64,000 bases of DNA from an uncultured Chloroflexia bacterium (GTDB taxonomy: Bacteria > Chloroflexota > Limnocylindria > Limnocylindrales > CSP1-4): positions 129,880 through 193,879 of the forward strand of contig CAVYUR010000001.1 of the NCBI GenBank assembly GCA_963771795.1. Direction: 5' to 3'. Below the pieces are notes generated by a model. That model was not told the DNA's origin and did not search any database. It saw only the letters and a list, made by a program, of their open reading frames with translations. Positions 17,917-64,000 of this stretch are shown in pieces. A program made the translations under genes and the position numbers. Numbering within the stretch: position 1 is the stretch's first letter; every line of letters starts with the position of its first letter.

Positions 17917-17925
17917 CGGGCCCGG

Positions 17926-45069: not shown

Positions 45070-45094
45070 TAGGGTGGCAGTTCCCATCGCGCGG

Positions 45095-45100
45095 TAGGCT
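45095..45100 (+). promoter_or_regulatory. -10-like TAGGCT, 6 nt upstream of the mreC ATG
   Basis: TAGGCT tcgacg ATG. Confidence 0.35.
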
Positions 45101-45106
45101 TCGACG

Positions 45107-46102: not shown

Positions 46103-46119
46103 CGGGCTGGTTCCCCTGC

Positions 46120-46125
46120 TACGCT
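46120..46125 (+). promoter_or_regulatory. -10-like TACGCT, 8 nt upstream of the rmlA-like ATG
   Basis: TACGCT gatcgcga ATG. Confidence 0.35.
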
Positions 46126-46133
46126 GATCGCGA

Positions 46134-46895: not shown

Positions 46896-47986
46896 CCGAC
46901 CTCGCGCCGGACGCGCATCTCCTCGTCACCGGCGGCGCTGGGTTCATCGGCTCGTGCTTCGTCCGGGACATCCTCGCCCGCCGCGACGGTGCCCGGATCA
47001 CGATCATCGACAAGCTGACCTACGCGGGCAACAGGACGAACCTGGCGCCCGTGGAGGCCGATCCGGAGCAGGCCGCACGACTTCGCTTCGTCGAAGGTGA
47101 CATCGCCGACGCGGCGGCCGTCGAGCCGCTCGTCCGCGACGCCGACGCGGTCATCAACTTCGCCGCCGAATCGCACGTCGACCGGAGCATCCTCGACCCG
47201 GAAGCTTTTCTGCGGACCGGAGTCGTCGGGGTCCACGTCCTGCTCGAGGCCGTCGTGGCCGCCTCGGCGGCTCGGCAGCGGCCGGTGCGCTTCGTCCAGG
47301 TGTCGACCGACGAGGTCTACGGCTCCGTCGAGAGCGGCCATTCCACGGAGTCCGACCGGCTCGAGCCGCGATCGCCGTACTCGGCTGCCAAGGCGGCAGG
47401 TGAGCTGCTCGTCGGGAGCTACGTGGCGACGCACGGCGTCGACGCGGTGGTCACGCGCGGCTCCAATACCTACGGCCCCTACCACCACCCGGAGAAGCTC
47501 ATCCCGCTCTTCGTGACGAACGCGATCGACGATCAGCCGCTGCCTCTCTACGGCGATGGCCTACAGCGGCGGGACTGGCTGTACGTCGGCGACCACGCGG
47601 GCGCCGTCGAGCACGTGCTGCGCCACGGGCTGGCGGGCGAGACCTACAACATCCCGGGCTCGGCCGAGATGACGAACCGCGACGTCGTGGCGGCGCTCCT
47701 CGAGCGGCTCGGCAAGCCGTGGTCGCTCGTCCGGAGCGTTCCGGATCGGCCCGGTCACGATCGCCGCTACGCTCTCGACGGCGCGAAGCTCGCCACGCTC
47801 GGCTGGCGCAACCGGACGGGCTTTGCCGACGGCCTGGCGGCCACGATCGACTGGTTCCAGGCGAACGAACCCTGGTGGCGAGCGGCGAAGTCCGGCGACT
47901 GGGATGCGTACTACGAGCGCCAGTACGGGACACGGCTGGCCGAGGGCAAGGCGGTCGCCGAGATCCACGCCCAGTCGGAGGCCTGA
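46892..47986 (+). CDS. rmlB: dTDP-glucose 4,6-dehydratase
   Basis: 364 aa. 'VTGGAGFIGS', 'YSAAKAAGE', 'TRGSNTYGPYHHPEKLIP'. Confidence 0.9.
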   Translation: MTDLAPDAHLLVTGGAGFIGSCFVRDILARRDGARITIIDKLTYAGNRTNLAPVEADPEQAARLRFVEGDIADAAAVEPLVRDADAVINFAAESHVDRSILDPEAFLRTGVVGVHVLLEAVVAASAARQRPVRFVQVSTDEVYGSVESGHSTESDRLEPRSPYSAAKAAGELLVGSYVATHGVDAVVTRGSNTYGPYHHPEKLIPLFVTNAIDDQPLPLYGDGLQRRDWLYVGDHAGAVEHVLRHGLAGETYNIPGSAEMTNRDVVAALLERLGKPWSLVRSVPDRPGHDRRYALDGAKLATLGWRNRTGFADGLAATIDWFQANEPWWRAAKSGDWDAYYERQYGTRLAEGKAVAEIHAQSEA

Positions 47987-47989
47987 CCG

Positions 47990-48910
47990 GTGCGCGTCGC
48001 GGTGACCGGCGCCCGCGGCCGGCTCGGGCGCGCGCTCGTCGCGGCCCTCGAGGATGCGCCGTTCGCCGGCCCGTTCGGGCCGATCGCCTGGGATCGGTCG
48101 GCGTTCGATCTCGACGCTCCGGCCGGGGTCGGCGCGCTCCTCGACCGTGACCGGCCGGAGACGGTCGTCCACGCGGCCGCCTGGACCGATGTCGACGGTT
48201 GCGCCCGGGAACCGGACCTCGCCCTGGCACGGAACGGCGCCGCGACCGGGATCCTCGCGACGGCCTGTGCGGAGCGGGGAATCGATCTCGTCGTCGTCTC
48301 GACCAACGAAGTCTTCGACGGCCGGCGGTCTGACGGCCGCGGCTATGCCCCGACCGACGCCACTGCGCCGCTCAACCCGTACGGCGCCTCCAAGCTGGCG
48401 GGCGAGCGCGCGGCGACCGACGCCTACCAGGGCGGCGGTGCCTCAGGCGCGCTGGGAATCGCTCGCACCGCGTGGCTGTACGGCCCGCCCGGCAACGATT
48501 TCCCGTCGAAGATCCTGGCCGTGGCTGAGCGCTGGACCCCCGGCGGAGAGCCGCTGCGCCTCGTCGCCGACGAGATCGGCTCGCCGACGTTCACCCACGA
48601 CCTGGCCGAGGCGATCGCCGAACTGATCGGCGGGGCCGCGGTCGAAGGCATCCACCACATCGTCAATACCGGGACGGCATCGCGCGCGGACTGGGCTCGC
48701 GAGCTCCTCCGCCAGGTCAAGCTGAGTGCCGTCCCGACGGCCGACGTCCCGGCATCGACCTGGACTCGTGCGTCGACCCCGCCGGCATGGGGCGTCCTGG
48801 AACCAACGCCACTGCCGGGCGGTGAAGCCCTCCGTGACTGGTCGGCGGCGCTGGCCGACTACCTGCCGGCGCTCCTTCGTCAGCGGCATTCGGCGGGAGC
48901 CGGCAGGTGA
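47990..48910 (+). CDS. rmlD: dTDP-4-dehydrorhamnose reductase
   Basis: 306 aa. 'VAVTGARGRLG', 'HAAAWTDVDGCE', 'YGASKLAGE'. Confidence 0.85.
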   Translation: MRVAVTGARGRLGRALVAALEDAPFAGPFGPIAWDRSAFDLDAPAGVGALLDRDRPETVVHAAAWTDVDGCAREPDLALARNGAATGILATACAERGIDLVVVSTNEVFDGRRSDGRGYAPTDATAPLNPYGASKLAGERAATDAYQGGGASGALGIARTAWLYGPPGNDFPSKILAVAERWTPGGEPLRLVADEIGSPTFTHDLAEAIAELIGGAAVEGIHHIVNTGTASRADWARELLRQVKLSAVPTADVPASTWTRASTPPAWGVLEPTPLPGGEALRDWSAALADYLPALLRQRHSAGAGR

Positions 48911-49491
48911 CGGATCGCGCGTCGGCGCTGCGAGGGGTGCGATTCGGCGCGGTGACACGCCATGGTGACGTCCGCGGTTCGTTCCGCGAGCTGTGGCGGA
49001 ACTCCTCGTTCCCGTCGATGACGGCCGCGGAGACCGGCGCCCCGGACGGTTCCGAGCCGCGTTTCGTCCAGGCCAACCTGTCAACGTCAGCGGCAGGCGT
49101 CCTCCGGGGACTCCACTACCACCGGCGGCAGCTCGACTACTGGGTCGTGGTCGCCGGCCGGGCGCTCGTTGCGCTCGTCGATGTCAGGCCGCTGATCGAC
49201 GGCACGGGCGATCGGGCTGTGGTGGAGACCCACGAGCTTGCGCCCGACGACTCGGTGGTGATCCCGACCGGCGTGGCCCACGGATTCCTCGCGCTCGAAC
49301 CCCTGGAGCTGCTCTATCTCGTCACCAACGAGTTCGACGGTTCGGACGAGCTCGGCTTCGCCTGGGACGATCCCGCTGTTGGCGTGCCATGGCCGATGGT
49401 CGAGGGAACCCCGGACGGGCGGCCGATCCTGTCAGAACGCGATCAATCGAACCCTCCTCTTGCCGAGCTGGTGTCGCGCCTGCGCACCTGA
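48907..49491 (+). CDS. rmlC: dTDP-4-dehydrorhamnose 3,5-epimerase
   Basis: 194 aa. Cupin 'GVLRGLHYH..Q.DYWVVV.G', 'IPTGVAHGF'. Confidence 0.85.
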   Translation: MTDRASALRGVRFGAVTRHGDVRGSFRELWRNSSFPSMTAAETGAPDGSEPRFVQANLSTSAAGVLRGLHYHRRQLDYWVVVAGRALVALVDVRPLIDGTGDRAVVETHELAPDDSVVIPTGVAHGFLALEPLELLYLVTNEFDGSDELGFAWDDPAVGVPWPMVEGTPDGRPILSERDQSNPPLAELVSRLRT

Positions 49492-49720
49492 CCGAGCCGA
49501 ATACGCGCGGCGACCCCGGCCGAGCCTGGCCGTGGCGTCGCCGCAACGGCGGCCGACGCAGCCTGCACACCTCTCCGCACGGCTCCACCCGCATCCGCAC
49601 CTCTGCGCGCCCGATGGGGCCATGGGTGGCGGGACCATCCTGCGATTGCCCAGGGGGCGCTCGTGAGCCACGCTGCCGAAGCACTCATTCCGACCCCCAG
49701 GTCGATTCGTTCAGGAGTTC

Positions 49721-50569
49721 ATGTTGCGCAAATCAGTCTTCGGAATTGTCTTCGCGATGGTCGCCGTGATGGGCGCCCATGGCACGGTCGCGGCTGCCCA
49801 GACGAGCACGGCCAAGGTCGTGATCATCGTCGGCGCAGACACGCCCCAGTACATCTCGCGTGCCAACGAGGTCTACGCGGAGGCGATCAAGTACACGCCG
49901 AACGTCGTCAAGGTCTACACGCCGAATGCCACGTGGAGCGCCGTCAAGTCCGCCGTGAACGGGGCGAATGTCGTCGTCTACATGGGCCACGGCAACGGCT
50001 TCCCCAGCCCGTATGGCAGCAGCCCGAACGGCTACGTGACGAAGGACGGTTTCGGCCTCAACGCCAGCGCCGGCGGCGGTCACGGCAACCTGAAGTATTA
50101 CGGCGAACCGTCGATCAAGACCCTCACCTTCGCCCCGAATGCGATCGTGTTCCTGTTCCACCTCTGCTACGCGTCGGGCAACTCGGAGCCTGGCAAGGCC
50201 GCCCCGACCCTGACCGTTGCGAAGCAGCGGGTCGACAACTACGGCTCGGCGTTCCTCGCCGCAGGCGCGTCGGCCGTCGTAGCCGGCGGGCACAGCCACA
50301 GTGGCTATCTCGACGAGCTCTTCACGACCGCCCAGTCGCTGGGTGGGATGTGGCGCAGCGTCAACAGCTACAACAATCACGAGATCGCCTTCACGCCTAA
50401 GCGCAGCACCGGCTCGGCAATCCTCGACCCTGAGAATGGCGGCGCCAGCCCGTCGAGCTTCTACCGCTCGATCGTCGGCAACGTCGCGATCATGACCCAC
50501 CAGGTGACCGGAACCATCCTGCCGCCGGGCGTCCGCGGCGATCCGGGCAGGGTTCGACCCACTCGGTAG
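49721..50569 (+). CDS. Secreted protein with caspase/gingipain-like (clan CD-type) His...Cys arrangement, unknown function
   Basis: 282 aa with SD CAGGAG and signal peptide 'FGIVFAMVAVMGAHGTVAAA'. 'KVVIIVGAD...ANVVVYMGHGNG' and, ~58 aa later, 'IVFLFHLCYASGN' resemble the His-Gly / hydrophobic-Cys dyad blocks of clan CD peptidases. This is inference only. Confidence 0.55.
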   Translation: MLRKSVFGIVFAMVAVMGAHGTVAAAQTSTAKVVIIVGADTPQYISRANEVYAEAIKYTPNVVKVYTPNATWSAVKSAVNGANVVVYMGHGNGFPSPYGSSPNGYVTKDGFGLNASAGGGHGNLKYYGEPSIKTLTFAPNAIVFLFHLCYASGNSEPGKAAPTLTVAKQRVDNYGSAFLAAGASAVVAGGHSHSGYLDELFTTAQSLGGMWRSVNSYNNHEIAFTPKRSTGSAILDPENGGASPSSFYRSIVGNVAIMTHQVTGTILPPGVRGDPGRVRPTR

Positions 50570-50825
50570 GCCGCCGGTACGACCAGGCGCGTCGCCCAGC
50601 GCGGGCGAACGTCCTCAGGCACGTAGAACGTCACCAAACCCCTCCGTACCACGCACGACCGGGACCATCGTCCCCGTTGCGCCCCGCAACACCCCGGGCG
50701 TACCGTAGGCCGTCTCGCCGCGAACGGCGTTGCCCTCGAGGAGCCATCGTGACCTCCCGCCGACCCACGTCCGCACGCTCGGCCGCCTCGTGAACCTCGG
50801 CTCACGGACGCCGTTCGCTGCCCGG

Positions 50826-53800
50826 ATGAGACGGCGGAACGGCCTTTCGACGGCGTTCGCTGCCCTAGTGCTCGTCTCCCAGCTCATCGGCGCGGCCCCG
50901 ATCACCGCGGCTGAGCCGGTCGTCGCGTCGCCCGATCCCGCCCTCGAATCAGGTGAGCTCCAGCCCGGCATTCACTACGCAGACGCGCTCGCCCACGCCG
51001 ACGATCGGATCGCGTTCACGCCGGGCGGCCGGGTCACCGTCCCGTTCCGGCCGCGCGCCGACGACACGTGGGAGGTCGGCGGCAAGGCGCCGCGCAGCCT
51101 GCCTGCCGGCACCCTGTCGGGCCGAGACCTGATCCCGGCGAAGGCCGGCAAGCCAGCCGCGAGCCCGGCGGCCGACCCAGAGGCGATCCCAGACGAAAGC
51201 CCCGAAGCGAGCGCCGCTCCGACCGCTCCCGTCGACGCCCCCGCCCTCGACCCGTCCGATGCCCCGGCCGCGGACGGCGCATCCGCCACGCTCCCTGGCG
51301 CGAGCCCGGATATCACCGCCGATGGGACGCGGCTCCGACGCCAGGTGATGGGCTTCCTCCCGTACTGGGAAGTCGCCGACGCACGCCTCGACTACGAGCT
51401 CCTCTCGACGATTGCCTACTTCAGCGTCGGGGCCGACCGGAACGGCAACCTCCTCAAGACTGACCCCGACGGGACGCCGACGACCGGCTGGGGTGGCTGG
51501 ACCAGCTCGCGCCTGACCTCGATCATCAACGGCGCCCATGCGAAGGGCACCCGCGTCGTCCTCACGGTCTCCGTCTTTGCCTGGACGAGCGGTCAGGCCG
51601 CGGTCCAGGGGGCGCTGCTCGGCAGCCCGACGGCGCGCCTCAACCTCGCGAAGCAGGCCGCGGCCGCCGTTCGTGCCCGCGGTGCAGACGGCATCAATCT
51701 CGACTTCGAACCGATCGCGTCGGGCTACGGCGACGAGTACGCGACGTTCGTCAGGACGGTCCGGGCCGAGCTGAACAAGCAGGCGCCGGGCTACCAGCTG
51801 ACGTTCGACACGACGGGGTCGATCGGGAACTACCCGATCGAGGCGGCGACCGCGCCGGGCGGCGCCGACGCGATCTTCATCATGGGCTACGACTACCGGA
51901 CGGCCGGCGCCGGCTGGGCGGGTTCGATCGATCCGCTGTCCGGCCCGGCGTACGACCTCCAGGACACCGTCAACGCCTTCGCCGCCCGGGTTCCGCCTTC
52001 CAAGCTCATCCTCGGCGTGCCGTGGTACGGCAGGGCCTGGTCCACGGTCTCCGACCAGGTCAACGCGAAGACCCAGTCGGGGACGAAGTACGGAACGTCG
52101 AACTCTGTCCTCTTCGACACAGCCGCCGACTACGCGCAGCAGCACGGGCGGCGCTGGGACACTCGCGAGCAGTCGTCGTGGGTCGCCTACCGGCGTCAGA
52201 ACTGCTCGTCGACGTATGGCTGCGTGATGAGCTGGCGCCAGATCTACTACGACGACGGCGTCTCGCTGAAGCTCCGCTACGACATGATCAACCGGATGGG
52301 CCTCCGCGGCGCCGGGATCTGGGCCCTCGGCTACGACGGCGACCGGACCGAGATGCGCCAGGCGCTGGCCGAGAAGTTCCTCGACGACAAGACCGTGCCG
52401 CTCGCCGGGATCAAGGCGCTCGCCCCGGTCCATGCCGCGGAGCAATTCGCGGTCTCGTGGGTTGGCTCCGACGAGAGCGGCATCCTCGACTACGACGTCC
52501 AGGTATCGATCCGTGGCGGACCGTGGCACGACTGGCTCATCGATACGAAGACGACGAGCGCCACGTACGCCGGCGCCGACGGACACGGCTTTGCATTCCG
52601 CGCCAGGGCCCGCGACGTCGCCGGCAACACCGGCGCCTGGGTCGTCACCAGCGTCTATCTCCCGCACGTGACCCTGACGCCCGGCGGCTTCGGCAAGGTC
52701 GTGGCTTCGAGCGTCAACGTCCGTTCGGCGGCAGGAACGGCCGCGCCGATCGTCACGACCGCCGCGGCGGGGACGACGCTCGCTATCACCGGCGGTCCGG
52801 TCAGCCTGAACGGCTACACGTGGTACAAGGCGACGCTGCCGATCGCTGAGTGGGCGCCCATCGCCGGCGTCCGGTCCGATGTCTGGGTCGCTGCGGGCAC
52901 GAGCGGCGCGACCTATGTCGCCCCCGTCACCGCCCCGAACGCGACGGGCGTCGATCTGCCCTCCGGGGTTGCCCCGGCCGCGGGTGCCCGGTTCGTCGGG
53001 ATCGATCCTACCCGCTTCCTCGACACGCGCTCCGGGATCGGCCTCGGCGGCACGTTCGCGAGTGGCACGCCCAGGACGTTCCCGGTCAGGGGCATCCGCG
53101 GCGTCCCCTCGAACGCGGTCGCGGTCACCGGAACGCTGACTGTCGTGGGCCAGTCGAGTGCGGGCTTCGCGAGCCTCGGGCCATCCGCGGCCACGGTTGC
53201 CCGCTCCTCGGTCGTCAACGTCCCGAAAGGCGATGTCCGGGCGGCCGGAACCACCGTCAAGCTCGGTGCCGACGGATCACTGGCGGCCCTTTGGACCGGA
53301 GCCGGTGGTTCCAAGACGAGCCTCGTCTTTGACGTGAGCGGCTACTTCGTCCCGGGCGCGACTGGCGGGACATTCACGCCGCTGGCGCCCGCTCGCGTCC
53401 TCGACACGAGGAGCGGCAACGGATTGTCCGGGGTCTTCACCGCGAGCGCACCTCGGTCCTTCCTCGTCCGGGGCCGCGGCGGCGTCCCGGCCGGGGCTGT
53501 CGCGGTGACCGGCAACCTCACGGTGGTCGGGCCGTCCAGCGCCGGATTCCTGTACGTCGGGCCGGTTGCCGTGGCGACGCCGCCCGGCTCGAGCCTCAAC
53601 GTCCCTCGGGGCGATGTCCGTGCGGCGTCGGTGACCGTCAAGCTCGACGCGGGCGGTCGGTTGGGCATCGTCTGGAAAGGCGATCCTGGTGCGACGGCCC
53701 ACATCCTGTTCGACGTCACCGGCTACTTCGTCAACGGGGCCGGCGGCGCGACCTTCTACCCGATCGACGCGGCCCGCGTGCTCGACAGCCGGACCGGCAA

Positions 53801-54116
53801 CGGCCTCTCAGGCGCCTTCGCGAGCCTCGGGACCCGGGTGTTCCAGGCGACCGGTCGCGGGACGATCCCGGTGAACGCCGTTGCAGTGATCGGCGGAGCG
53901 ACGATCGTGAGCCCGACCGGGAACGGCCTGCTCATCATCGGTCCGGCCGGCATGACGCTCGGCTCCACATCGACGATCAACGTCCCGAAGGGCGATATCC
54001 GGGCGAACGGCCTCACCGTCCGCACGGGTGCGGGCGGCGGTCTCGGGGCGGTCTACAACGGTCCGCGAGGGGCTTCGGCACACGTGATCTTCGACGCCAC
54101 GGGTTACTTCCGCTGA
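50826..54116 (+). CDS. Large secreted multidomain GH18 (chitinase/peptidoglycan-hydrolase-like) protein with SH3-like domain and three C-terminal ~120-aa repeats
   Basis: ATG 50826 with a signal peptide. GH18 block 'GFLPYWE...ADGINLDFE...IMGYDY...GAGIWALGYD'. SH3b-like 'VNVRSAAG...GYTWYKATL'. Three 'RVLDTRSG...GYF' repeats. Confidence 0.8.
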   Translation: MRRRNGLSTAFAALVLVSQLIGAAPITAAEPVVASPDPALESGELQPGIHYADALAHADDRIAFTPGGRVTVPFRPRADDTWEVGGKAPRSLPAGTLSGRDLIPAKAGKPAASPAADPEAIPDESPEASAAPTAPVDAPALDPSDAPAADGASATLPGASPDITADGTRLRRQVMGFLPYWEVADARLDYELLSTIAYFSVGADRNGNLLKTDPDGTPTTGWGGWTSSRLTSIINGAHAKGTRVVLTVSVFAWTSGQAAVQGALLGSPTARLNLAKQAAAAVRARGADGINLDFEPIASGYGDEYATFVRTVRAELNKQAPGYQLTFDTTGSIGNYPIEAATAPGGADAIFIMGYDYRTAGAGWAGSIDPLSGPAYDLQDTVNAFAARVPPSKLILGVPWYGRAWSTVSDQVNAKTQSGTKYGTSNSVLFDTAADYAQQHGRRWDTREQSSWVAYRRQNCSSTYGCVMSWRQIYYDDGVSLKLRYDMINRMGLRGAGIWALGYDGDRTEMRQALAEKFLDDKTVPLAGIKALAPVHAAEQFAVSWVGSDESGILDYDVQVSIRGGPWHDWLIDTKTTSATYAGADGHGFAFRARARDVAGNTGAWVVTSVYLPHVTLTPGGFGKVVASSVNVRSAAGTAAPIVTTAAAGTTLAITGGPVSLNGYTWYKATLPIAEWAPIAGVRSDVWVAAGTSGATYVAPVTAPNATGVDLPSGVAPAAGARFVGIDPTRFLDTRSGIGLGGTFASGTPRTFPVRGIRGVPSNAVAVTGTLTVVGQSSAGFASLGPSAATVARSSVVNVPKGDVRAAGTTVKLGADGSLAALWTGAGGSKTSLVFDVSGYFVPGATGGTFTPLAPARVLDTRSGNGLSGVFTASAPRSFLVRGRGGVPAGAVAVTGNLTVVGPSSAGFLYVGPVAVATPPGSSLNVPRGDVRAASVTVKLDAGGRLGIVWKGDPGATAHILFDVTGYFVNGAGGATFYPIDAARVLDSRTGNGLSGAFASLGTRVFQATGRGTIPVNAVAVIGGATIVSPTGNGLLIIGPAGMTLGSTSTINVPKGDIRANGLTVRTGAGGGLGAVYNGPRGASAHVIFDATGYFR
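52992..54113 (+). repeat. Three tandem protein-level repeats (~120 aa each) at the C-terminus of the GH18 protein
   Basis: Repeat units start near 52992, 53372 and 53752. Shared skeleton: 'F..I/L...R.LD(T/S)R(S/T)G.GL.G.F......F.V.G.GG(V/I)P..AVAV.G.LT(V/I)V.P...GF....P.......S..NVP.GD(V/I)RA....V.....G.L......G.......(L/I)FD(V/A)(S/T)GYF'. Confidence 0.85.
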
Positions 54117-54165
54117 GGGGTACCGAGAGGACGATCGGCCAGGTTCGCACGGCACAGGCCGGGTC

Positions 54166-54171
54166 TACACT
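54166..54171 (+). promoter_or_regulatory. -10-like TACACT, 9 nt upstream of the Ppm1-like ATG
   Basis: TACACT ggcccgacc ATG. Confidence 0.35.
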
Positions 54172-54180
54172 GGCCCGACC

Positions 54181-55086
54181 ATGACGACCCCGCGGCGCCG
54201 CAAGGCAGCCCCCGAGAGCGCCGAGCCAGTCCTCGGAGCCGGAGCGTGGGTCGTGCTGCCGACCTACAACGAGGCGGAGAACATCCGGACGATCTCGCCC
54301 GCGATCCTTGCCGCGCTGCCGGGTGCCACGCTCCTCGTCGTCGACGACGGGTCCCCGGACGGCACGGGTGCGATCGCCGACGAGCTCGCCCGGGCCAACA
54401 ACAGGATCCGCGTCCATCACCGGCCCGAGAAGCAGGGCCTCGGGCGGGCCTACCTGGGCGGGTTCGGCGTTGCGCTCGCCGGTGGCGCCGACATCGTCAT
54501 CCAGATGGACGCCGACTGGTCGCATGATCCGGCCGCACTGCCGGCGCTCATCGCTCCGATCGGCGGCGGCACGGCCGACCTCGTGATCGGGTCCCGTTAC
54601 ACGAAGGGCGGTGGGGTCGTCGACTGGGGCCTCGGGCGCCGCATGATCTCGCGCGGCGGAAGCATCTTCGCCCGGAACGTGCTGCGCCTCGGGCCGCGGG
54701 ACCTCACAGGCGGCTTCAAGGCATGGCGCGCCTCGACGCTCGCGTCGATCCCGTTCGACGGGGTCCACGCCGGCGGCTACGTCTTCCAAATCGAGATGAC
54801 GTTCCGCGCATCGCGCAGCGGCGGGCGGGTCGCCGAGGTCCCGATCACGTTCCGAGATCGCCGCGTCGGCCAGTCGAAGATGAGCCGGCGGATCGTCGTC
54901 GAGGCGCTCGTCGTCGTCGTGACGCTCCGCGCCGAAGAGCTCCTCGGGCGAGTCCGCGGGCGCGGCCGGCGACAGATCGCCGGCGTCCCCAGGCCGAAGA
55001 GCCAGGCGGCAAGCGAGGCGTTGCCAGACGGTGACGTGGCGCTACCGGCCGCGCTCGACGTGCCCGCCGCCGGCGAGGGCCGGTGA
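54181..55086 (+). CDS. Polyprenol-phosphate mannosyltransferase-like GT2 (Ppm1/DPM1-like)
   Basis: 301 aa. 'VVLPTYNEAENI', 'VVDDGSPDGT', 'QMDADWSHDP', 'GSRY..GG'. Confidence 0.85.
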   Translation: MTTPRRRKAAPESAEPVLGAGAWVVLPTYNEAENIRTISPAILAALPGATLLVVDDGSPDGTGAIADELARANNRIRVHHRPEKQGLGRAYLGGFGVALAGGADIVIQMDADWSHDPAALPALIAPIGGGTADLVIGSRYTKGGGVVDWGLGRRMISRGGSIFARNVLRLGPRDLTGGFKAWRASTLASIPFDGVHAGGYVFQIEMTFRASRSGGRVAEVPITFRDRRVGQSKMSRRIVVEALVVVVTLRAEELLGRVRGRGRRQIAGVPRPKSQAASEALPDGDVALPAALDVPAAGEGR

Positions 55087-56411
55087 CCGGCGAAGTCCAC
55101 GGGCCTCTCGGGACGGCGGATCCAGATCGCTCGGAGCACCCAATTCCGGGCGTCCGGGTCGTCCTCGACGCCCGACCGCTGCAGGAGCCGGATCGCGCAC
55201 CGCTGACGGCGAGCTACCTCGCCGGCCTGCTCGGAGCCTTCGATGCCGAGCCGATCGCGGGCGAGTCGTTCGCCCTGCTGCTCGGCTCCGACCTAGATGA
55301 CCCGACGGAGCGGTTCGAGCACCTCTCGGTCGTCGGCCGACGACTCCTGCCACCGACGCGGCTGCTCCGCTCCGGCGCGATGACCGTCGACCCGTTCGTT
55401 CTCTCCGGAGCCTCGATCGGGGCGGCGTGGCGAGCGGATCGGGCGGGTGCCGCGGGCGCCGTCTACCACGCGGTCGGGGGGTCGATCCCACTCATGACCG
55501 GTCTACCACTGATCGTCACTCTCCTCGACCTTGCGCCGTGGGAGCTGCCGGGCGCCTACCAGCGCGGGACCGCTGCGCGCTTCGGCCAGCGGCTTCGTGG
55601 GCGGCTGCTCCGCGACGCGGCGGCCGTCATCGTCGGGACCGAGGCCGTCGCCGTCGCCGCCCGCCGGCTGCTCCGGATCCGCCGCGATCGGATCCGGGTC
55701 GTCTCTCTCGCCCCTCGGCCGGCATTCTGTGTTGACGGCGCGACGAACGGGGCAGGGCAAGGGGCCAAGCGGGGATGGGCGCCGCACGGCGACCCACGCG
55801 CCGAGCGCGAGCGCCTCGGCCTGCCGGAGCGCTATGTCATCTACTCGGGCCGGTACGACGCCCGCCAGGATCTCGCGACCCTGCTGCGCGCGCTGGCCGA
55901 GCTAGCCGCCGTCGGCCGGCCCGACGGCCTTCCGGATGACGCCCCATGGCCGCCCCGCGTGCTCTTTGCCGGAGCCTCGCCTGACGATCGTGCGGCGCTG
56001 GCGCGGGCGGCGGCACGGGAGGGCGTCGGCGAGACGATCGCCTACGCGCCACGCCTCGACGACGAGCGGCTGGCGAGCCTCGTCCGCGGTGCGCGGGCGG
56101 CGCTCCTCCCCGTGCTTTCGGACAGCACGGGCCAGGCCGCGATCGAGGCGATCGCCTGCGGCATCCCCGTCGTTGCGTCGGCCGTCGGCGCGCTCCCCGA
56201 GATCGTCGGAGGCGCCGGGATCCTGGTCGAGCCTCGCGACCCGGCGCGCCTCGCCCAGGCCCTCGCGACGGCGTTCGTCGACGATCGCGTCCACGGCGCC
56301 CTCGCCGAGATCGCGCTCGAGCGCGCGACCACCGATCGGCGGACCTGGTCCGATGTCGCCCGCGAGACCCGCGTCATCTACGCGGAGTCGGCCGCCCGGA
56401 GGCGCCGCTGA
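55083..56411 (+). CDS. GT4-family (GT-B) glycosyltransferase
   Basis: 442 aa with GTGA overlap. C-terminal 'LLPVLSDSTGQAAIEAIACGIPVVASAVGALPEIVG..G.LVEP' (EX7E-type). Confidence 0.8.
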   Translation: MTGEVHGPLGTADPDRSEHPIPGVRVVLDARPLQEPDRAPLTASYLAGLLGAFDAEPIAGESFALLLGSDLDDPTERFEHLSVVGRRLLPPTRLLRSGAMTVDPFVLSGASIGAAWRADRAGAAGAVYHAVGGSIPLMTGLPLIVTLLDLAPWELPGAYQRGTAARFGQRLRGRLLRDAAAVIVGTEAVAVAARRLLRIRRDRIRVVSLAPRPAFCVDGATNGAGQGAKRGWAPHGDPRAERERLGLPERYVIYSGRYDARQDLATLLRALAELAAVGRPDGLPDDAPWPPRVLFAGASPDDRAALARAAAREGVGETIAYAPRLDDERLASLVRGARAALLPVLSDSTGQAAIEAIACGIPVVASAVGALPEIVGGAGILVEPRDPARLAQALATAFVDDRVHGALAEIALERATTDRRTWSDVARETRVIYAESAARRRR

Positions 56412-56419
56412 CGATCGAG

Positions 56420-57619
56420 CTAGCTCTCGTCCAGTCCCGAGTCGAACGGATCCGGCGGAGGCGGCGGAACGCCTGGCTTGATCGTCACCTTCGTGCCGGT
56501 CTGCATGACCTGGACGAACGTCTGCCCGACGGTCAGCTTGACGACCTTGCCCTTGGCATCGAAGAAGAGCGTCGGCTTCGTCAGGGAGTCCTTCCGCCAC
56601 GTGCCCTTGATGGTCGTCCCGTTCGTCGAGATCCACGCGGTTCCCTTGCCGACAACCTGTGCCTCGAGGCGGTTCTTCCTCGAGCCGTCGTTCAGCGGCC
56701 CGAACTTCATCAGCATGATCACGACGTTCTTCGGGGCGACGCGGGCGCCGGTCGCCGCGTCGACCTGCTTCTTTTCGCCGGTGACCGACCGCAGGTACGT
56801 GTTCGACGTCCAGTCGTAGTCGTAGCGAATCTTGTTGGCGGAGTAGCCGACGTCGATCCGGCCACCGCGGGGCCGGAACGACGCCTGGAGATCCGGGCCG
56901 AAGGTCCAGGCCGGTGTCATCGGCCCGTCTGTCGCCTTGACCGACTTGGCGAGGCTCCGGAGGTGCTTGCCGTCCGTGTAGAGGTTGTGCGGCGCGTACC
57001 GGTCCTTGACGCGCCAGAACGACTTCGCCCAGCGGAACTCGTCGGCGTTGTAGACGAGCTGCCCTTGGCCTTTCGAGCGAAGCGTCTGGAGCGCCTGCGG
57101 TGAGCCGCCCGCGTGGGCGTAGACGGCCCGCCACTCGGCGGCCCAGGCGATGTAGTAGTAGCGCGCGCTCCGGACGGGTCCAACGGCAGCCGGAATGTTC
57201 TCCTGGAAGATCAGCATGTAGCGCGGGATTCCGCCTTCGGCGGGCGCCTGCCAGACGACCGATGCCGCGTTGAACCCGGATTGCGGCCGAGCCGCGCTCA
57301 GGTCGTCGACCATCACCGCGATCGGGTGCTGGGCGGCGACCGCCGGCGGCACGAGACGGCCGGTCAGCGGCGCCGGTACGGGAACGGGCGTGGGAACGGG
57401 TGTCGGCGAAGGCGTCGGCGTGGGAACGGGCGTCGGCGAGGGCGTTGGGGTCGGGCTCGGCGTCGCGGTCGCGGACGGCGACGGGCTGGCCGCGGCGACC
57501 TGGCTCGGGCTGCCTGACGCCCCGGGCGCTGCGGCAGCAGCGAGGATCCCGAATCCGAGGCCGGCGGCGACGGCCGCAACGGCCAGGATCGCGACCAACG
57601 GTCGTTTCATCGGAGACAC
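56420..57619 (-). CDS. DUF3048 (YerB-like) secreted/lipoprotein
   Basis: 399 aa (or start at ATG 57610). Signal sequence, a Pro/Thr/Ser linker, then 'PIAVMVDDLSAARPQSGFN.ASVVWQAPAEGGIPRYMLIFQ', which is typical of DUF3048. Confidence 0.8.
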   Translation of the reverse strand: MSPMKRPLVAILAVAAVAAGLGFGILAAAAAPGASGSPSQVAAASPSPSATATPSPTPTPSPTPVPTPTPSPTPVPTPVPVPAPLTGRLVPPAVAAQHPIAVMVDDLSAARPQSGFNAASVVWQAPAEGGIPRYMLIFQENIPAAVGPVRSARYYYIAWAAEWRAVYAHAGGSPQALQTLRSKGQGQLVYNADEFRWAKSFWRVKDRYAPHNLYTDGKHLRSLAKSVKATDGPMTPAWTFGPDLQASFRPRGGRIDVGYSANKIRYDYDWTSNTYLRSVTGEKKQVDAATGARVAPKNVVIMLMKFGPLNDGSRKNRLEAQVVGKGTAWISTNGTTIKGTWRKDSLTKPTLFFDAKGKVVKLTVGQTFVQVMQTGTKVTIKPGVPPPPPDPFDSGLDES

Positions 57620-57846
57620 GGCGTCTGGGAGTCCATGGTGCCTCGAGGCTTGGTGCAGGATCGCGCAGCTTGTGACGGCGCCGTCGAGTCGACGGTGACG
57701 GTGCCCACCGAGTTCCGACGCCGCAGGATACCCCAGCGACCGCGCGGCGCCATCTCGGCCGAGCGTAAGGTCGATCGAGGACGCAGCCGTGCGTCACGCG
57801 GTAGGCTGCCTGCAGACACCACGCCCGAGCCAGAGCGAGGGAACCA

Positions 57847-58740
57847 ATGCCCGACGAAGAGCAGCCCGACGCCGCAGCCGACGAACCGACGGCAGAGACC
57901 CCGCCAACGGACGGAGAGCCAGGCGGCGCCGACGCGCTCGCGAACGCCGAAGAGGCGGCGATCCTCGAGGCCGCCGCGGAGGCGGCGAGGGTGGATCCGG
58001 CAAAGACCGAGCTTGCGCCGAGCGAGGAAGGCAGCGACGCCGACGCGGGCTCCGCCGAGACAACGGATACGACCTCGGACGAGCCTGCCGCCGACGAGCC
58101 GGCCGCGGACGAGGCGGCCGCCGATGAGCCGGCCGCCGACACGGCCCCGCCGGAGCCCGCCAAGGAAGCCCCGGCCAAGGAAGCCAAGCCGACCGTCATC
58201 CGGCCGAAGGAAACGACGAGCCGCAAGGCTGCCGCGAAACCCCGTCCGGGCCTCGCCGCGTCCGCCACGGCCCTCGAGACGTCGCCGGCCCGCCTTGATC
58301 CTGCCCTCACGAGGCTCGATTCCGTCCTGATACGGGATCGCAGCACAGAGCAGGTCACCGCGACCAACCTCGACGTCAGCCGCGGCGGAATCGGCCGGGC
58401 GCAGGCTGTCGATATCGCGGTCTCGCAGGGCGGGATCGGCATGGCCAGGGGCGATCGCGTCTCGGTCGAGATGGGGGCCGTGGGGGCGGCGATCGCCGGC
58501 GAGGTCCGTGTGACCCAGGGTGCCGTCGGCACCGTCCTTGCCCGCGACGTCCGCATCGAGCAGGCCGCCGTCAGGACGATCGTCGCCAACAACGTCCGGT
58601 TCGAGCGGACGACCGGGGTCCTCGTGCTCCTCGCGCGACGCGTCGAAGGCAATGTGCGCGTGCTGCTCGACTGGCGCGGCGCGCTCGCGTTTGGAGCGGC
58701 GTTCGGCGTGATCGTGTCGATTTTCCGGCGCCGGAAATAG
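57847..58740 (+). CDS. Acidic disordered N-terminus + ~15-aa beta-solenoid-like repeats + C-terminal TM anchor; unknown function
   Basis: 297 aa. 'DEPAADEPAADEAAADEPAAD'. Repeats 'VSRGGIGRAQAVDIA / VSQGGIGMARGDRVS / VEMGAVGAAIAGEVR / VTQGAVGTVLARDVR / IEQAAVRTIVANNVR'. Ends 'ALAFGAAFGVIVSIFRRRK'. Confidence 0.55.
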   Translation: MPDEEQPDAAADEPTAETPPTDGEPGGADALANAEEAAILEAAAEAARVDPAKTELAPSEEGSDADAGSAETTDTTSDEPAADEPAADEAAADEPAADTAPPEPAKEAPAKEAKPTVIRPKETTSRKAAAKPRPGLAASATALETSPARLDPALTRLDSVLIRDRSTEQVTATNLDVSRGGIGRAQAVDIAVSQGGIGMARGDRVSVEMGAVGAAIAGEVRVTQGAVGTVLARDVRIEQAAVRTIVANNVRFERTTGVLVLLARRVEGNVRVLLDWRGALAFGAAFGVIVSIFRRRK

Positions 58741-58796
58741 GCGCGTCTCGCGTCGCGCCCGACGGCCTTCTGAAGGGCCGCGGGACCGGGCTCGGC

Positions 58797-58802
58797 TATA
58801 CT
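58797..58802 (+). promoter_or_regulatory. -10-like TATACT upstream of the Wbp-type gene string (~70-nt leader, SD AGGAG)
   Basis: Lies in the 136-bp gap after the 57847..58740 gene. It is preceded by an imperfect hairpin, GGCCTTCTGAAGGGCC. Confidence 0.3.
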
Positions 58803-58876
58803 CGACGACCGGCCTGCGCCCCTCGCGCGATCGCTCGTCCGCAGACCCGGTCCCGCTGATAGGAGCCCACCGACAC

Positions 58877-59550
58877 GTGATCGATCCCTCCGCGCGCGTC
58901 CACGCGACCGCGGATCTCGAATCCGATGTGAACGTCGGGGCCGGGACGAGCATCTGGCACCGGGCCCAGCTCAGGGCGGGCGCCACGGATCGGGTCTGAA
59001 TGCGTCATCGGTCGAGACGTGTTCATCGATGAGGGCGTGTCGATCGGCGACCGGGTCAAGATCCAGAACGCCGCGCTGGTCTACCACGGCGTCACCGTCG
59101 AGGACGGCGTCTTCATCGGCCCCGGGGCAATCCTGACCAACGACCGCTACCCGCGGGCGATTACCTCGACCGGCGAGCTCGCAACGCGCCACCGACTGGA
59201 AGGTCTCGCCGATCACCGTCCGCTACGGCTCATCGGTCGGAGCCGGTGCCGTCGTCGTGGCCGGCGTCGAGGTCGGCCGCTTTGCGACCGTCGGTGCCGG
59301 AGCCGTCGTGACCCGGAGCGTCCCGAACCACGCCCTCGTCGCGGGCAGCCCGGCCCGCAGGATCGGCTGGGTGTGCGCCTGCGGGGCGCGCCTCGTCGAC
59401 GCCAACGGCGATCCTGTCCAGGCCGAGCCCGGTCGCTATGCCGCCCGCACGGATCTCCTCTGCGCCAACTGCGGCCGCCGCTACGCCTACGTCCCTGATG
59501 CCGAGACGCTCGAGGAGCGATCCGGCCCGCGCCAAGGAGCACCAGCATGA
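58877..59550 (+). pseudogene. WbpD/WlbB-type left-handed-beta-helix N-acetyltransferase, reading frame broken twice (+1 near 58985 and 59193)
   Basis: SD AGGAG, then GTG 58877. The three segments read 'VIDPSARVHATADLESDVNVGAGTSIWHRAQLRAGA', 'RIGSECVIGRDVFIDEGVSIGDRVKIQNAALVYHGVTVEDGVFIGPGAILTND' and 'DWKVSPITVRYGSSVGAGAVVVAGVEVGRFATVGAGAVV...GSPARRIGWVC', each in a successive frame. Confidence 0.7.
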
Positions 59551-60701
59551 TCCCGATCGCCCGTCCCGATCTCGGCCCCGAAGAGCTTGAGGCGGTGACG
59601 GAGGTCCTCGGGAGCGGGATGATCGCCCAGGGGCGCAAGGTCGCGGAACTCGAGGAACGCTGGGCGGAGTTCATCGGCGTCCGCCATGCGATCGCCATGG
59701 TCGAACGGCACCGTTGCCCTGATGTCGATCTTCTCGGGGATCGGCCTCGAGCCCGGCGACGAGGTGATCACGGTCTCCCACACGTTCGCCGCGACCGCGA
59801 ACGCGATTCTGTATACCGGCGCGACGCCGGTCTTCATCGACATCGAGCCCGACACCTACCTCATCGACGCGAAGCAGATCGAGGCCGCGATCACGCCGCG
59901 GACCAGGGCGATCTGCCCGGTCCACCTCTTCGGGCTCGTCGCCGACATGGACATGATCCAGGGCGATCGCCGACCGCCACGGGCTCGCCGTCGTCGAGGA
60001 CGCCTGCCAGGCCCACGGCGCGACGTTCCGCGGCCGCAAGGCGGGCAGCTTCGGCCACGGCGCATTCAGCCTCTACGCGACGAAGAACATGACGACGGCC
60101 GAGGGCGGCTTCGTCACGACCAACGACGACGGCTGGCCGACTGGCTGCGCCTCTATCGCAACCAGGGCATGCGGGCCCGCTACCAGTTCGAGATGCTCGG
60201 CTTCAACTTCCGGCTGACCGACCTCGCCGCCGCGATCGGGCTCGCCCAGCTCGCCAAGCTCGCCGCGCAACACGGCCCGCCGCCAGGCGATCGCGGCCGC
60301 GCTACGACGACGGCATTCGGCGAGCTGCCGATCGGCCTGCCGATCACGCCCGACGGCCGGACCCACGTCTTCCACCAGTACACGATCGACGTCGGCGGAG
60401 CGCGCGACGCGATCGTCGCCGACCTCCGCGAGGCCGGCGTCGGGGCGGACATCTACTACCCGATCCCCGTCCATCGCCAGGCATACATCATGGAGCGGGG
60501 CCTCCACGCGGACCTGCCGGTGACCGACGCCGCCGCGGCGCGGACGCTTGCCCTGCCGATGTTCCCCGGCCTGACCGACGCGGAGCAGGACGCAGGTGAT
60601 CGACGCGCGTCAGGACGGCCGTCGGGCGCCACCTCGGCGCCGGCACGGCGAGCGGCGCGACCGCGGTCGCAGCACCCGACGCCGGTATCGCCGCCCGATG
60701 A
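59547..60701 (+). pseudogene. WbpE/DegT-type PLP aminotransferase, about 8 frame changes
   Basis: The segments 'MIPIARPDLGPEELEAV', 'NGTVALMSIFSGIGLEPGDEVITVSHTFAATANAI', '[49 protein letters not shown]', 'LRLYRNQGM', 'RRQAIAA', 'THVFHQYTI' and 'YYPIPVHRQ' alternate between frames. Changes lie near 59703, 59962, 60131(-1), 60265, 60302, 60316, 60592 and 60608. Confidence 0.7.
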
Positions 60702-60722
60702 TCGGAGCCTGGCGCCCGGCCG

Positions 60723-61761
60723 GTGATCGCGCCGCTGCGCGTCGGCCTGGCGGGTCTCGGGTCGATGGGCCGCAACCACCTGCGGATCCTCGCCGGACGC
60801 ACGGACCTGCGCCTCGTCGCCGTCGCCGATCCCGTCGCCGAGGCGCTCGAGGCAGCGACAGCCGATCTCCGGCGCCCAGGGTTTCGCCGAACCGCTGGCG
60901 ATGATCGCGGAGGCCGAGCTCGACGCGATCGTCGATCGCCGCGCCGACCACCGCCCACGTGCCCCTTGCCCTCGCGGCGATCGAGCGCGGGATCGGCCGG
61001 TCCTCGTCGAGAAGCCGCTCGCGGCCACGGTCGATGAGGGGATGCGCGATCGTCGCACGCGGCGCGAGACCGCGGCGTGCCCGTCCAGGTGGGCCACGTC
61101 GAGCGGTTCAACCCCGCCGTCCTCGAGCTCGGCCGGCTGCATCGGCGAGGGCTGGCTGTCGGCCGGTCTACGCGATCGCCTCGCGCCGGGCCGGCCCGTT
61201 CCCGGCCAGGATCCGGGACGTCGGGGTGACCGTCGACCTCGCGACCCACGACGTCGACATCCTCTCGTGGATCGCCGGCGAGCGGCCGACGCGCGTTTAC
61301 GCCGAGACTGCCCAGCGAATCCACGCCGACCACGAGGATCTGCTCTTCGGGCTGCTCCACTTCCCGTCCGGGTGCCACCGGGATGCTCGACGTCAACTGG
61401 CTGACGCCGGCCAAGCGACGCCAGCTCGTCGTCGTCGGCGAGGAGGGGATGTTCGAGCTCGACTACCTGACCCAGCGCCTGACCTTCACCAGGGCGACCG
61501 ACACGACCAACCCGCGCCTGATCGGCGGCTACGCGCCGACCTTCGAGGGCGAGGTGGCCGAGCTTCCGGTCGCCTCCGCCGAGCCGCTCGCGGCGGAGCT
61601 GGACGCGTTCCTCGGGATCGTCAGGAACGGCGGCCGGCCGATCGTCGACGCCGAGGACGGCCTGTGGGCCGTTGCCGTGGCCACGTCCCTGCTCGAAGTC
61701 GGCGGCGGGTGGCAACGCGATCGATCTGTCCGCGCTGTCCGCGCGGTTCGCCCTCGCATGA
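60723..61761 (+). pseudogene. WbpB/Gfo-Idh-MocA-type NAD oxidoreductase, about 9 frame changes
   Basis: The segments 'LRVGLAGLGSMGRNHLRIL', 'IAAPTTAHVPLALAAIERGI', 'PVLVEKPLA', 'VPVQVGHVERFNPAV', 'VYAIASRRAGPFPARIRDVGVTVDLATHDVDI' and 'MLDVNWLTPAKRR' are spread over all three frames. Changes lie near 60864, 60934, 60996(-1), 61048, 61067, 61140, 61165, 61373 and ~61708. Confidence 0.7.
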
Positions 61762-63201
61762 CGATCGTCGTCGCGACCGACGCGCGGTGCCAAGTCCCTC
61801 CTCGGGGGCTCGATCGAGCTGCCGGTCAACGCGTGCGGCCACGAGCCAGGCGGTCGAGGTCAGCCCGTGGACGGGCGAGCCCGGAACGGCCGGCCGGGTC
61901 GCGGTCGTCGGCGCCGGCAAGATGGGCCTGCCGCTGGCAGCCCAGTTCGCAGGCCACGGCTGGCGCGTCATCGCGGTCGACGTCCAGCAGGCGGTCGTCG
62001 ACGCGATCAACGAGGGCCGATCGCACGTCGAGGAGGAGCCGGGGCTCGCCGAGCTGGTCCGCGCGGCGCACGATCGCGGGCCGACTCCGAGCCACGACCG
62101 ATGGCGCCGCCGCAGCCCGTCGAGGCCGACGTCGTCGTGCTCATCGTGCCGGTCATGCTCGACGACGAGCAGCAGCCCGACTATCGCTACATGGACGCGG
62201 CGGTCGACGCCGATCGCCCCGGGCGTCCATGCCGGCTCGCTCGTGATCTTCGAGACGACGCTGCCGGTCGGCGACACGCGGGAACGGTTCACGCCCCGGC
62301 TCGAGGCGGCGTCCGGGCTCAAGGCGGACGAGGACTTCTTCGTGGCGTTCTCGCCGGAGCGGCTCTACAGCGGCGCAGCGCTCCGCAACCTCGCGACCTA
62401 CCCGAAGCTCGTCGGCGGGATCGGGCCGGCCTCCACGGCCCGGGCGGCGGCGTTCTACGACGCGGTCCTCGACACCGAGATCGTCGCGATGTCGCAACGC
62501 CGAGGCGGCCGAGTTCAGCAAGCTCGCCGACACGACCTATCGCGACGTCAACATCGCCCTCGCCAACGAGTTCGCCCGCTACGCCGAACGGATCGGCGTC
62601 GACATCCACGAGGTGATCGCCGCGGCGAACAGCCAGCCCTACTCCCACATCCATCAGCCCGGCCTCGGGGTCGGCGGGCACTGCATCCCGGTCTATCCGC
62701 ACTTCCTCCTGTCGCGCGCGCCGGAGCTCGAGCTCGTGGAGCTGTCGCGTCGAACGAACGACGGCCAGGTCGGCGTCGCGATCAAGGCCCTTCGAGCAGG
62801 AGCTCGGCGGCCTGCGAGGGGGTCCCGATCCTCGTCCTCGGCCTGACCTACCGCCACGGCGTCAACGAGCTCGCCTACTCACGGGCCCTGCCGCTGATCG
62901 AGCGGCTCATCCACCAGGGCGCCGTCGTGTCGGCCTTCGACCCGCTGCTGGACGCCGAGGAGATCGAGCGCATCGGCGCCGTCGCCGTGGCGCTGGGGCG
63001 AGCCGGGTCCGTTCCGGGCGATCGTCACCCAGACGGCGGATCCGCTCTTCGCGACGCTCGACCCGGGCCTGGTTCCCGGAACTCGCGGTCGTGTTCGACG
63101 GCCGCGACAGCCTCCGAGACCTCGTCCTGCCAGACGGCGTCGCCTACCGCGGGATCGGCGTGCCCGGACGGGCCGCCGCCGCTGCTCCGACCGCGAGCTG
63201 A
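61758..63201 (+). pseudogene. WbpA-type nucleotide-sugar (UDP-GlcNAc/ManNAc) 6-dehydrogenase, at least 8 frame changes
   Basis: The segments 'RVAVVGAGKMGLPLAAQFA', 'VEADVVVLIVPVMLD', 'IAPGVHAGSLVIFETTLPVGDT', 'FFVAFSPERL', 'NAEAAEFSKLADTTYRDVNIALANEF', 'GLGVGGHCIPVYP' and 'VPILVLGLTYRHG' alternate frames. Changes lie near 62078, 62118, 62212, 62495, 62790, 62821, 62984 and 63069. The first ~40 codons are unresolved. ATGA overlap with the upstream gene. Confidence 0.65.
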
Positions 63202-63261
63202 TCGCTCCTGCACGGCGCTGCGGGCGCCACCCCAGCGAACGCCACGCACTAGGCTGACCCG

Positions 63262-64000
63262 GTGCGAATCGTCAGCGTCGTCGGGACGCGCCCCCAGCTG
63301 ATCAAGGCCGCGGCGCTGCTGCCGGTGCTGCGGCGCCGTCACGACGACGTCTTCGTCGACACCGGCCAGCACTGGGACGACGCGATGGCCGGTGACTTCT
63401 TCGCCGAGCTCGGCCTGCCGCAGCCGGATCATGCCCTCGGGATCGGGGGCGGCTCGGCGGCCGACGCAGATCGGGCGGATGCTGCCGTCGATCGCGACCG
63501 GTCCTCGCGGATGAGCGTCCGGATGCCGTGCTCGTCTACGGCGACACGAACTCGACCCTCGCGGGCGCCCTCGCGGCGTCGAAGCTCGGCGATCCCGGTC
63601 GCCCATGTCGAGGCCGGCCTGCGCAGCTTCGACCGGCGGATGCCCGAGGAGACAACCGGGTCGTCGACCGACCACCTGTCGCGCTGGCTCTTCGCGCCGA
63701 CCCCGACGGCGGTCGCGAACCTCGCTGCCGAGGGAATCGCCGACGGCGTCGTCCTCGTCGGCGACCTGATGCAGGACCTGGCAGCCCGCGTTGCCGCGGA
63801 GGTCCGCGACGGGGCGGCCGTGCTCCCGTCGATCGCCCGGCGATTTGGCCTGGACCTCGCGCCCGGCGGCTATCTGTTCGCGACGATCCACCGTGCCGAG
63901 AACCGCAGCCTCGAAGCAATCCGTGCCTGGGCGGCGCTCCTCGCCGCGGCGGCGAGCCCGGACCGACCGGTCGTCCTCGCTCTCCACCCGGGGACGCGCG
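63262..64000 (+). pseudogene. WbpI/WecB-type UDP-GlcNAc(3NAcA) 2-epimerase, 5' part (runs off the window), 5 frame changes
   Basis: GTG 63262, 'RIVSVVGTRPQLIKAA'. Frame jumps follow near 63460, 63500, 63591, 63652(-1) and 63666, around '[30 protein letters not shown]', '[20 protein letters not shown]', 'NRVV' and 'TDHLS'. The frame is clean from 63667 to the window end. Confidence 0.7.

Follow-up and report, generated by a model that had tools for sequence, protein, structure and literature searches.

A conserved Limnocylindrales gene cluster probably directing synthesis of a UDP-diacetamido-uronic acid, with frameshifts that look like consensus errors

The stretch analysed here, called the window, comprises 64,000 nucleotides of contig CAVYUR010000001.1 from an uncultured Chloroflexia bacterium and has a G+C content of ~70%. 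Five co-oriented homologues of sugar-nucleotide enzymes lie consecutively at 58877-64000 on the + strand, and this operon region is the subject of the analysis. None of the five genes has an uninterrupted start-to-stop frame as written (0/5). Each is broken by one-base insertions or deletions (indels), and the pieces are spread over three alternating reading frames. The phase of G+C at third codon positions (GC3) flips every 100-300 nt across 58877-64000. Positions 1-58740 are tiled with long, frame-consistent and intact open reading frames (ORFs), the longest of 1,128 aa. The five genes of the operon region are:

58877-59550, + strand: LbH N-acetyltransferase (WlbB/WbpD-like), 223 aa after frame repair; 2 one-base insertions (~58984, ~59185)

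59547-60701, + strand: DegT/DnrJ/EryC1-type, pyridoxal phosphate (PLP) aminotransferase (WbpE/WlbC-like), ~381 aa after repair; 7 insertions (59703, 59960, 60261, 60299, 60311, 60592, 60607) and 1 deletion (60130)

60698-61761, + strand: Gfo/Idh/MocA NAD-dependent sugar 3-oxidoreductase (WbpB/WlbA-like or UDP-N-acetylglucosamine (UDP-GlcNAc) 3-dehydrogenase-like), 350 aa after repair; ~11-12 one-base insertions

61758-63201, + strand: nucleotide-sugar 6-dehydrogenase (WbpA or UDP-N-acetylmannosamine (UDP-ManNAc) dehydrogenase family), 476-477 aa after repair; ~10-11 one-base insertions

63262-64000, + strand, cut by the window end: non-hydrolysing UDP-sugar 2-epimerase (WbpI/WlbD-like), N-terminal 245 of ~372 codons; 4 insertions (63465, 63497, 63591, 63667) and 1 deletion (~63652)

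The first four genes are joined by three ATGA start/stop overlaps (59547-59550, 60698-60701 and 61758-61761), one more than an earlier sequence-only reading of this DNA had counted, and a ~60-nt spacer separates the dehydrogenase from the epimerase. That reading had also called the pathway complete within the window, which does not apply to an epimerase cut at 64000. Its recognition of five consecutive + strand genes of these families is confirmed. Hand-stitched, frame-repaired translations were searched against NCBIfam models and against PDB sequences. The repaired proteins match NCBIfam models with E 1e-25 to 1e-98, and each corresponds to a single intact gene in relatives. The families matched are LbH sugar acetyltransferases, DegT-type aminotransferases, the Gfo/Idh/MocA sugar 3-dehydrogenase, the nucleotide-sugar dehydrogenase and the wecB-type 2-epimerase.

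The acetyltransferase matches hexapeptide/LbH models, and the Pfam families LbH and Hexapep are recorded on its orthologue in the closest intact relative (L083, GCA_038250445.1). The best PDB match is WlbB of Bordetella petrii (3mqg/3mqh, E 6.6e-37), followed by WxcM-like and QdtC 3-amino-sugar acetyltransferases. The enzyme is predicted to acetylate the 3-amino group of UDP-GlcNAc3NA(A) in an acetyl-CoA-dependent reaction. Past the LbH core, a tail of ~55 aa (59380-59550) contains two Cys pairs (WVCACG...LLCANCG) and has the look of a zinc ribbon. Relatives such as L004 conserve this tail, whereas the WlbB structure (192 aa) lacks it. The aminotransferase shows full-length DegT-family matches and retains the PLP-binding lysine motif in the repaired protein. 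Its PDB scores are 271 bits for perosamine synthase, 249-251 for ArnB and 248-250 for WbpE, which places WbpE within the top group, and its top NCBIfam models are PseC and ArnB, both under cut-off. The best PDB match of the epimerase is 8sxy, the UDP-2,3-diacetamido-2,3-dideoxy-glucuronic acid (UDP-GlcNAc3NAcA) 2-epimerase of Thermus thermophilus HB27, at 240 bits for the 245 of ~372 residues in the window, compared with 180 bits for the best UDP-GlcNAc 2-epimerase structure. The YGDT aspartate (D98 of the Thermus enzyme) is conserved.

The repaired oxidoreductase carries the Rossmann motif GLAGLGSMG (GxGxxG) and the EKP motif VLVEKPLA, and its homologues (intact, 350 aa, up to 92% identical) carry Pfam PF01408, PF22725 and PF02894. 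WlbA of B. pertussis (3q2k) scores 95 bits in a near-tie with 7bvj (90 bits), deposited as 'Oxidoreductase, NAD-binding'. Among curated models the best match is NF040723, for archaeal UDP-GlcNAc 3-dehydrogenase, which is matched over nearly the full model length at 253 bits by the repaired window protein and at 259 bits by the intact L004 orthologue, short of the cut-off of 450 bits. Homologues are labelled 'UDP-N-acetylglucosamine 3-dehydrogenase' by JGI. The dehydrogenase exceeds the cut-off of TIGR03026 (327-343 bits against 189.8) and contains the catalytic Cys motif GGHCIP; its homologues are intact, 477 aa long and up to 91% identical. The best specific matches are UDP-ManNAc dehydrogenases, both in the PDB (4r16 at 214 bits, Cap5O at 199 bits) and among equivalog models (the archaeal NF040825 at 250-262 bits, against a cut-off of 750). 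A TviB-type model reaches only 129-133 bits, and no WbpA structure or curated WbpA model occurs among the PDB and NCBIfam matches of the dehydrogenase. An extension of ~44 aa at 61758-61890 (MTIVSRPT..SLLGGS...ACGHEP...) precedes the Rossmann GxGxxG; relatives conserve its protein sequence, and homologues are uniformly ~477 aa long.

The cluster is widely conserved among relatives of the source organism. A scan at one genome per species yielded the 80 nearest loci, all of them from Chloroflexota or 'Candidatus Limnocylindrales' metagenome-assembled genomes, apart from a few labels that are probably mis-bins, with dehydrogenases 71-86% identical. The order acetyltransferase, aminotransferase, oxidoreductase, dehydrogenase and epimerase is kept, for the genes present, in 80/80 loci. 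All five genes occur in 58 of them, and most others run off the ends of their contigs. A gene split into two matches occurs in a single locus (L061). Three long loci (L057, L025 and L029) contain the first four genes and no epimerase within 10 kb after the dehydrogenase; these lineages may stop at a gluco-configured sugar or encode the epimerase elsewhere. The oxidoreductase and dehydrogenase of the closest intact relative share 91% identity with their repaired counterparts in the window. NCBI taxonomy places Ca. Limnocylindrales in Chloroflexota, kingdom Bacillati. Chloroflexota are counted among the monoderm Terrabacteria, and the mean GC content of Limnocylindria genomes is 68.9% (PMC10608941). 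The description of the genome as Gram-positive-type is therefore apt in the broad sense of monoderm-type, although Chloroflexota are not classical Gram-positives. An actinobacterial affinity, at which the GC content hinted, was rejected given that 80/80 nearest loci are from Chloroflexota/Limnocylindrales. Some dehydrogenases 76-84% identical (hits P0221 and P0230, locus L078) are labelled Patescibacteria, Verrucomicrobiae or Eisenbacteria and probably represent mis-binned Limnocylindrales contigs.

We suggest that the cluster is probably a conserved Limnocylindrales operon for the conversion of UDP-GlcNAc to a UDP-2,3-diacetamido-2,3-dideoxy-hexuronate, most likely UDP-2,3-diacetamido-2,3-dideoxy-mannuronic acid (UDP-ManNAc3NAcA), and that its ~37 indels are consensus errors and not decay. 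Judging from the enzyme families, the Gfo/Idh/MocA enzyme would oxidise C3, the DegT enzyme would aminate C3, the LbH enzyme would N-acetylate the 3-amino group, the 6-dehydrogenase would form the uronic acid and the 2-epimerase would turn the gluco into the manno configuration. The product would be passed to the glycosyltransferases whose genes flank the operon on its upstream and downstream sides, and would be built into a glycan of the cell envelope. UDP-ManNAc3NAcA is a plausible product because the enzyme set fits and three of the five closest structures (WlbB, WlbA and the Thermus 2-epimerase) belong to the pathway of this sugar. The same assignment in the sequence-only reading thus agrees with the enzyme set and with these structures, while a strict order starting with WbpA is not borne out. 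PDB and NCBIfam scores do not discriminate between a WbpA-first and a 3-dehydrogenase-first order. The best model of the oxidoreductase (NF040723) and the JGI names are a pointer to C3 chemistry ahead of C6 oxidation, and the nearest characterised relative of the epimerase, from Thermus, acts last and on the uronic acid. A hybrid order of 3-oxidation, amination, acetylation, 6-oxidation and 2-epimerisation would fit NF040723, the epimerase and the loci lacking an adjacent epimerase.

Related routes are known from both archaea and bacteria. The route of Methanococcus maripaludis reportedly opens with a UDP-GlcNAc 3-dehydrogenase (EC 1.1.1.374), as Namboori and Graham are said to have found in 2008. 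The window resembles this archaeal route in that the best equivalog models of the oxidoreductase and the dehydrogenase are archaeal (NF040723 and the UDP-ManNAc dehydrogenase). It differs in scores far under the cut-offs of 450 and 750, in its bacterial host and in an epimerase closest to a bacterial enzyme acting on a uronic acid. The five-enzyme scheme of WbpA, WbpB, WbpE, WbpD and WbpI has been described together with the Thermus thermophilus HB27 enzyme (PMC10622841). Pseudomonas aeruginosa Wbp, Bordetella WlbA-D and the five-ORF set of Thermus HB27 comprise the same five enzyme families, which are gathered in one operon here. In contrast to these sets, the window has the acetyltransferase first and the epimerase last, and the host is a monoderm-type Chloroflexota without O-antigen context. 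The Cys-rich tail of the acetyltransferase and the ~44-aa N-terminal extension of the dehydrogenase are additions relative to these systems, and the window dehydrogenase and oxidoreductase are not demonstrably of WbpA and WbpB specificity.

Diacetamido-uronic acids also occur outside O-antigens. The Geobacillus stearothermophilus NRS 2004/3a secondary cell wall polymer carries such an acid according to 1999 work, as cited in PMC2571106. Streptomyces teichuronic acids carry sugars of the ManNAc3NAcA/GlcNAc3NAcA type (bioRxiv 10.1101/2025.04.24.650519), and methanococcal N-glycans carry diacetamido-uronic acids of this kind (PMC2952790). The sequence-only reading had held that the pathway would be noteworthy in a Gram-positive-type genome. 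Since Gram-positive wall polymers were already known to contain the sugar, its occurrence here is hardly remarkable. A monoderm type of envelope is common to the window host and the Geobacillus and Streptomyces systems, and the sugar of the window host would likewise probably serve in a wall polymer. The link from operon to polymer would rest on the neighbouring glycosyltransferase, rml and DUF3048 genes. We consider the locus a further, uncharacterised representative of a known pathway, from a soil lineage of uncultured Chloroflexota, extending known chemistry and not changing it.

Positions 58800-64000 were aligned with 8-10 relatives to call window-specific indels. The alignment revealed ~32-35 insertions of one base, another of two bases (or a pair of single ones) and two one-base deletions in coding sequence, as well as a few in-frame indels mostly in linkers. 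The inserted bases (14 G, 12 C, 6 A and 3 T) follow the local composition and show no tie to homopolymers. Of 33 insertions, 13 fall within 5 nt of GATC (6.7 expected) and eight within 5 nt of CGATCG (2.4 expected), and the first insertion adjoins a CGATCG site. A methylation motif as cause of the insertions was considered and not adopted: the homologous cluster of a sister organism (L082, ENA ERZ25039550 contig_38538) lacks GATC/CGATCG enrichment, and the motifs are about as dense where the window is intact. The association may be due to chance. The sister contig has 91% DNA identity to the window, with its positions 14700-19880 corresponding to 58800-64000. Its five-gene cluster contains ~26 one-base insertions and 10 one-base deletions, mostly at sites other than those of the window and mostly from the window equivalent of ~61.5 kb onwards, and its upstream 14 kb are nearly clean.

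The breaks look like consensus errors of the deposited assemblies and not like pseudogenisation, because stop codons are absent, the ratio of nonsynonymous to synonymous substitution rates (dN/dS) is not raised, insertions outnumber deletions 35 to 2, an independent contig is in frame at the first site, and catalytic motifs are kept. Projected onto the frame of a relative, the repaired window has 0 stop codons in ~1,670 codons. The dN/dS between the window and five relatives is 0.12-0.27 and does not exceed the values for pairs of intact relatives (0.14-0.39). The repaired genes thus lack the pseudogene hallmarks of nonsense codons and raised dN/dS, and they retain GxGxxG, EKP, the PLP lysine, GGHCIP and the YGDT aspartate. 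The Logan contig L081 (ERR11593888_612768), which also encodes the 297-aa ORF upstream of the operon, is identical to the window over ~1,780 nt (57200-58976). The two part exactly at the first frameshift: the window there shows an extra G, plus a C for A seven bases earlier, and L081 stays in frame (...QLRAGATIGSECVIGRD...). Short contigs of related strains (90-95% identical) lack a single base at window insertions or no more than a few bases away, and add one base at or beside the two window deletions. The alternative that real frameshifts pseudogenised all five genes, already raised by the sequence-only reading, appears very unlikely. It would account for the fact that every gene is broken as given and that the same cluster is broken in the sister assembly. 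It is also consistent with exact look-ups of the nine broken ORFs and of ten repaired acetyltransferase variants, which returned no match and hence no intact source copy; proteins of the undamaged region, used as controls, were found by one look-up and missed by the other. However, decay long enough to fix ~37 indels should leave nonsense and missense changes as well, and the excess of insertions is opposite to bacterial gene decay, which is usually deletion-biased. The operon is intact in essentially all relatives, and the sister breaks lie mostly elsewhere. Real insertions would alternatively require a very recent, insertion-biased and local mutational burst that killed the operon twice, once in a Limnocylindrales population and once, independently, in the sister population (L082), before any other decay accumulated. 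We regard such a burst as extremely improbable. The errors probably stem from long-read metagenome assembly, and the genes are very probably intact in the real organism. A locally error-dense metagenome-assembled stretch can mimic a dead operon, and caution is warranted in similar cases. Here, dN/dS, the lack of stop codons, the preponderance of insertions and a contig of independent origin allowed error to be told from decay.

Several points weigh against reading the locus as an intact operon for UDP-ManNAc3NAcA. The indels are confined to the last ~5 kb, with the rest of the window clean, and only for the first of ~37 does an independent, near-identical contig directly contradict the window. 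Searches of a sequencing-run index that does not include ERR11593888 did not find the source reads and returned only related strains 90-95% identical. Insertions at 60261, 61699, 62796 and 63591 share alignment columns with the sister contig (four columns, with ~0.2 expected by chance), which suggests either that the consensus errs systematically or that both carry the same genuine change. Curated equivalog cut-offs are missed by the oxidoreductase, the aminotransferase and the acetyltransferase. WbpE does not stand out as the closest relative of the aminotransferase, nor WbpA as that of the dehydrogenase.

Other products are conceivable for the same genes. The operon might hold two pathways side by side, with a WecB/WecC-like pair producing UDP-N-acetylmannosaminuronic acid (UDP-ManNAcA), the trio of 3-dehydrogenase, aminotransferase and acetyltransferase producing UDP-GlcNAc3NAc, and no ManNAc3NAcA being made. 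This arrangement would explain why the dehydrogenase finds its best curated and structural matches in UDP-ManNAc dehydrogenases, and why the oxidoreductase resembles, by curated model and JGI name alike, a dehydrogenase of UDP-GlcNAc and not of its uronic acid. The epimerase is nearer to the UDP-GlcNAc3NAcA 2-epimerase than to any UDP-GlcNAc 2-epimerase (<=180 bits), though, and translational coupling of the first four genes through ATGA, an epimerase only ~60 nt further on and a conserved five-gene order all argue for one pathway. Long loci that keep the dehydrogenase without an adjacent epimerase are likewise a poor fit to a dehydrogenase needing a manno substrate. Overall, we find the split into two pathways unlikely. 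Quite unlikely is also a different product from the same families, such as a 3-acylamido variant, a gluco-configured product or a further-modified uronamide. All specific equivalog cut-offs are missed, the acetyltransferase has its unusual Cys-rich C-terminal extension and a few relatives lack an adjacent epimerase, as such a product could explain. The closest characterised relatives of three enzymes, however, belong to the ManNAc3NAcA pathway.

The neighbourhood of the proposed UDP-ManNAc3NAcA operon is consistent with a role in the cell envelope. Upstream rml, GT2, GT4 and DUF3048 genes noted by the sequence-only reading are confirmed:

46134-46895, + strand: rmlA (dTDP-rhamnose), intact

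46892-47986, + strand: rmlB (dTDP-rhamnose), intact

47990-48910, + strand: rmlD (dTDP-rhamnose), intact

~48907-49491, + strand: rmlC (dTDP-rhamnose), intact

54181-55086, + strand: GT2 glycosyltransferase, intact, syntenic in relatives

55083-56411, + strand: GT4 glycosyltransferase, intact, syntenic in relatives

56420-57619, - strand: DUF3048 lipoprotein-like protein, intact

57847-58740: 297-aa protein, intact, no Pfam match

The closest intact relative has the order GH18, GT2, GT4, DUF3048 (- strand), a 274-aa protein, the five genes of 223, 382, 350, 477 and 372 aa, and three GT4 genes. The upstream part of the window, intact, matches this order with rmlA/B/D/C, GH18, GT2, GT4, DUF3048 and the 297-aa protein without assigned family. 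The sequence-only reading had proposed to look for glycosyltransferases beyond the window, and in relatives they are indeed present, with three GT4 genes directly following the epimerase as above and GT4 genes immediately 3' of it in two further relatives. If the product is as proposed, the locus predicts an envelope glycan of rhamnose and diacetamido-uronate in an abundant, uncultured, monoderm-type Chloroflexota class of soil and freshwater. A predicted glycan locus conserved across the order and located beside mreBC could be of use to envelope biology, phage-receptor work and the design of lectin probes. Public pipelines already label the Limnocylindrales orthologues, with names that are either generic or specific.

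The block at 44011-58740 comprises mreB, mreC, rmlA, rmlB, rmlD, rmlC, a secreted 282-aa protein, a GH18 protein of ~1,100 aa, GT2, GT4 and DUF3048. The same order from mreB to DUF3048 precedes the operon in L082, L083 and L003, and the envelope-glycan locus thus adjoins cell-shape genes across the order. A 623-aa 'gene' picked by the GC3 filter downstream in L003 was discarded as a spurious Arg-rich frame. The 297-aa protein has an acidic N-terminal half rich in Ala, Pro and Glu and a repetitive C-terminal half rich in Val and Gly. Its position between the DUF3048 and acetyltransferase genes is syntenic in relatives, where the proteins encoded there are 250-324 aa long.

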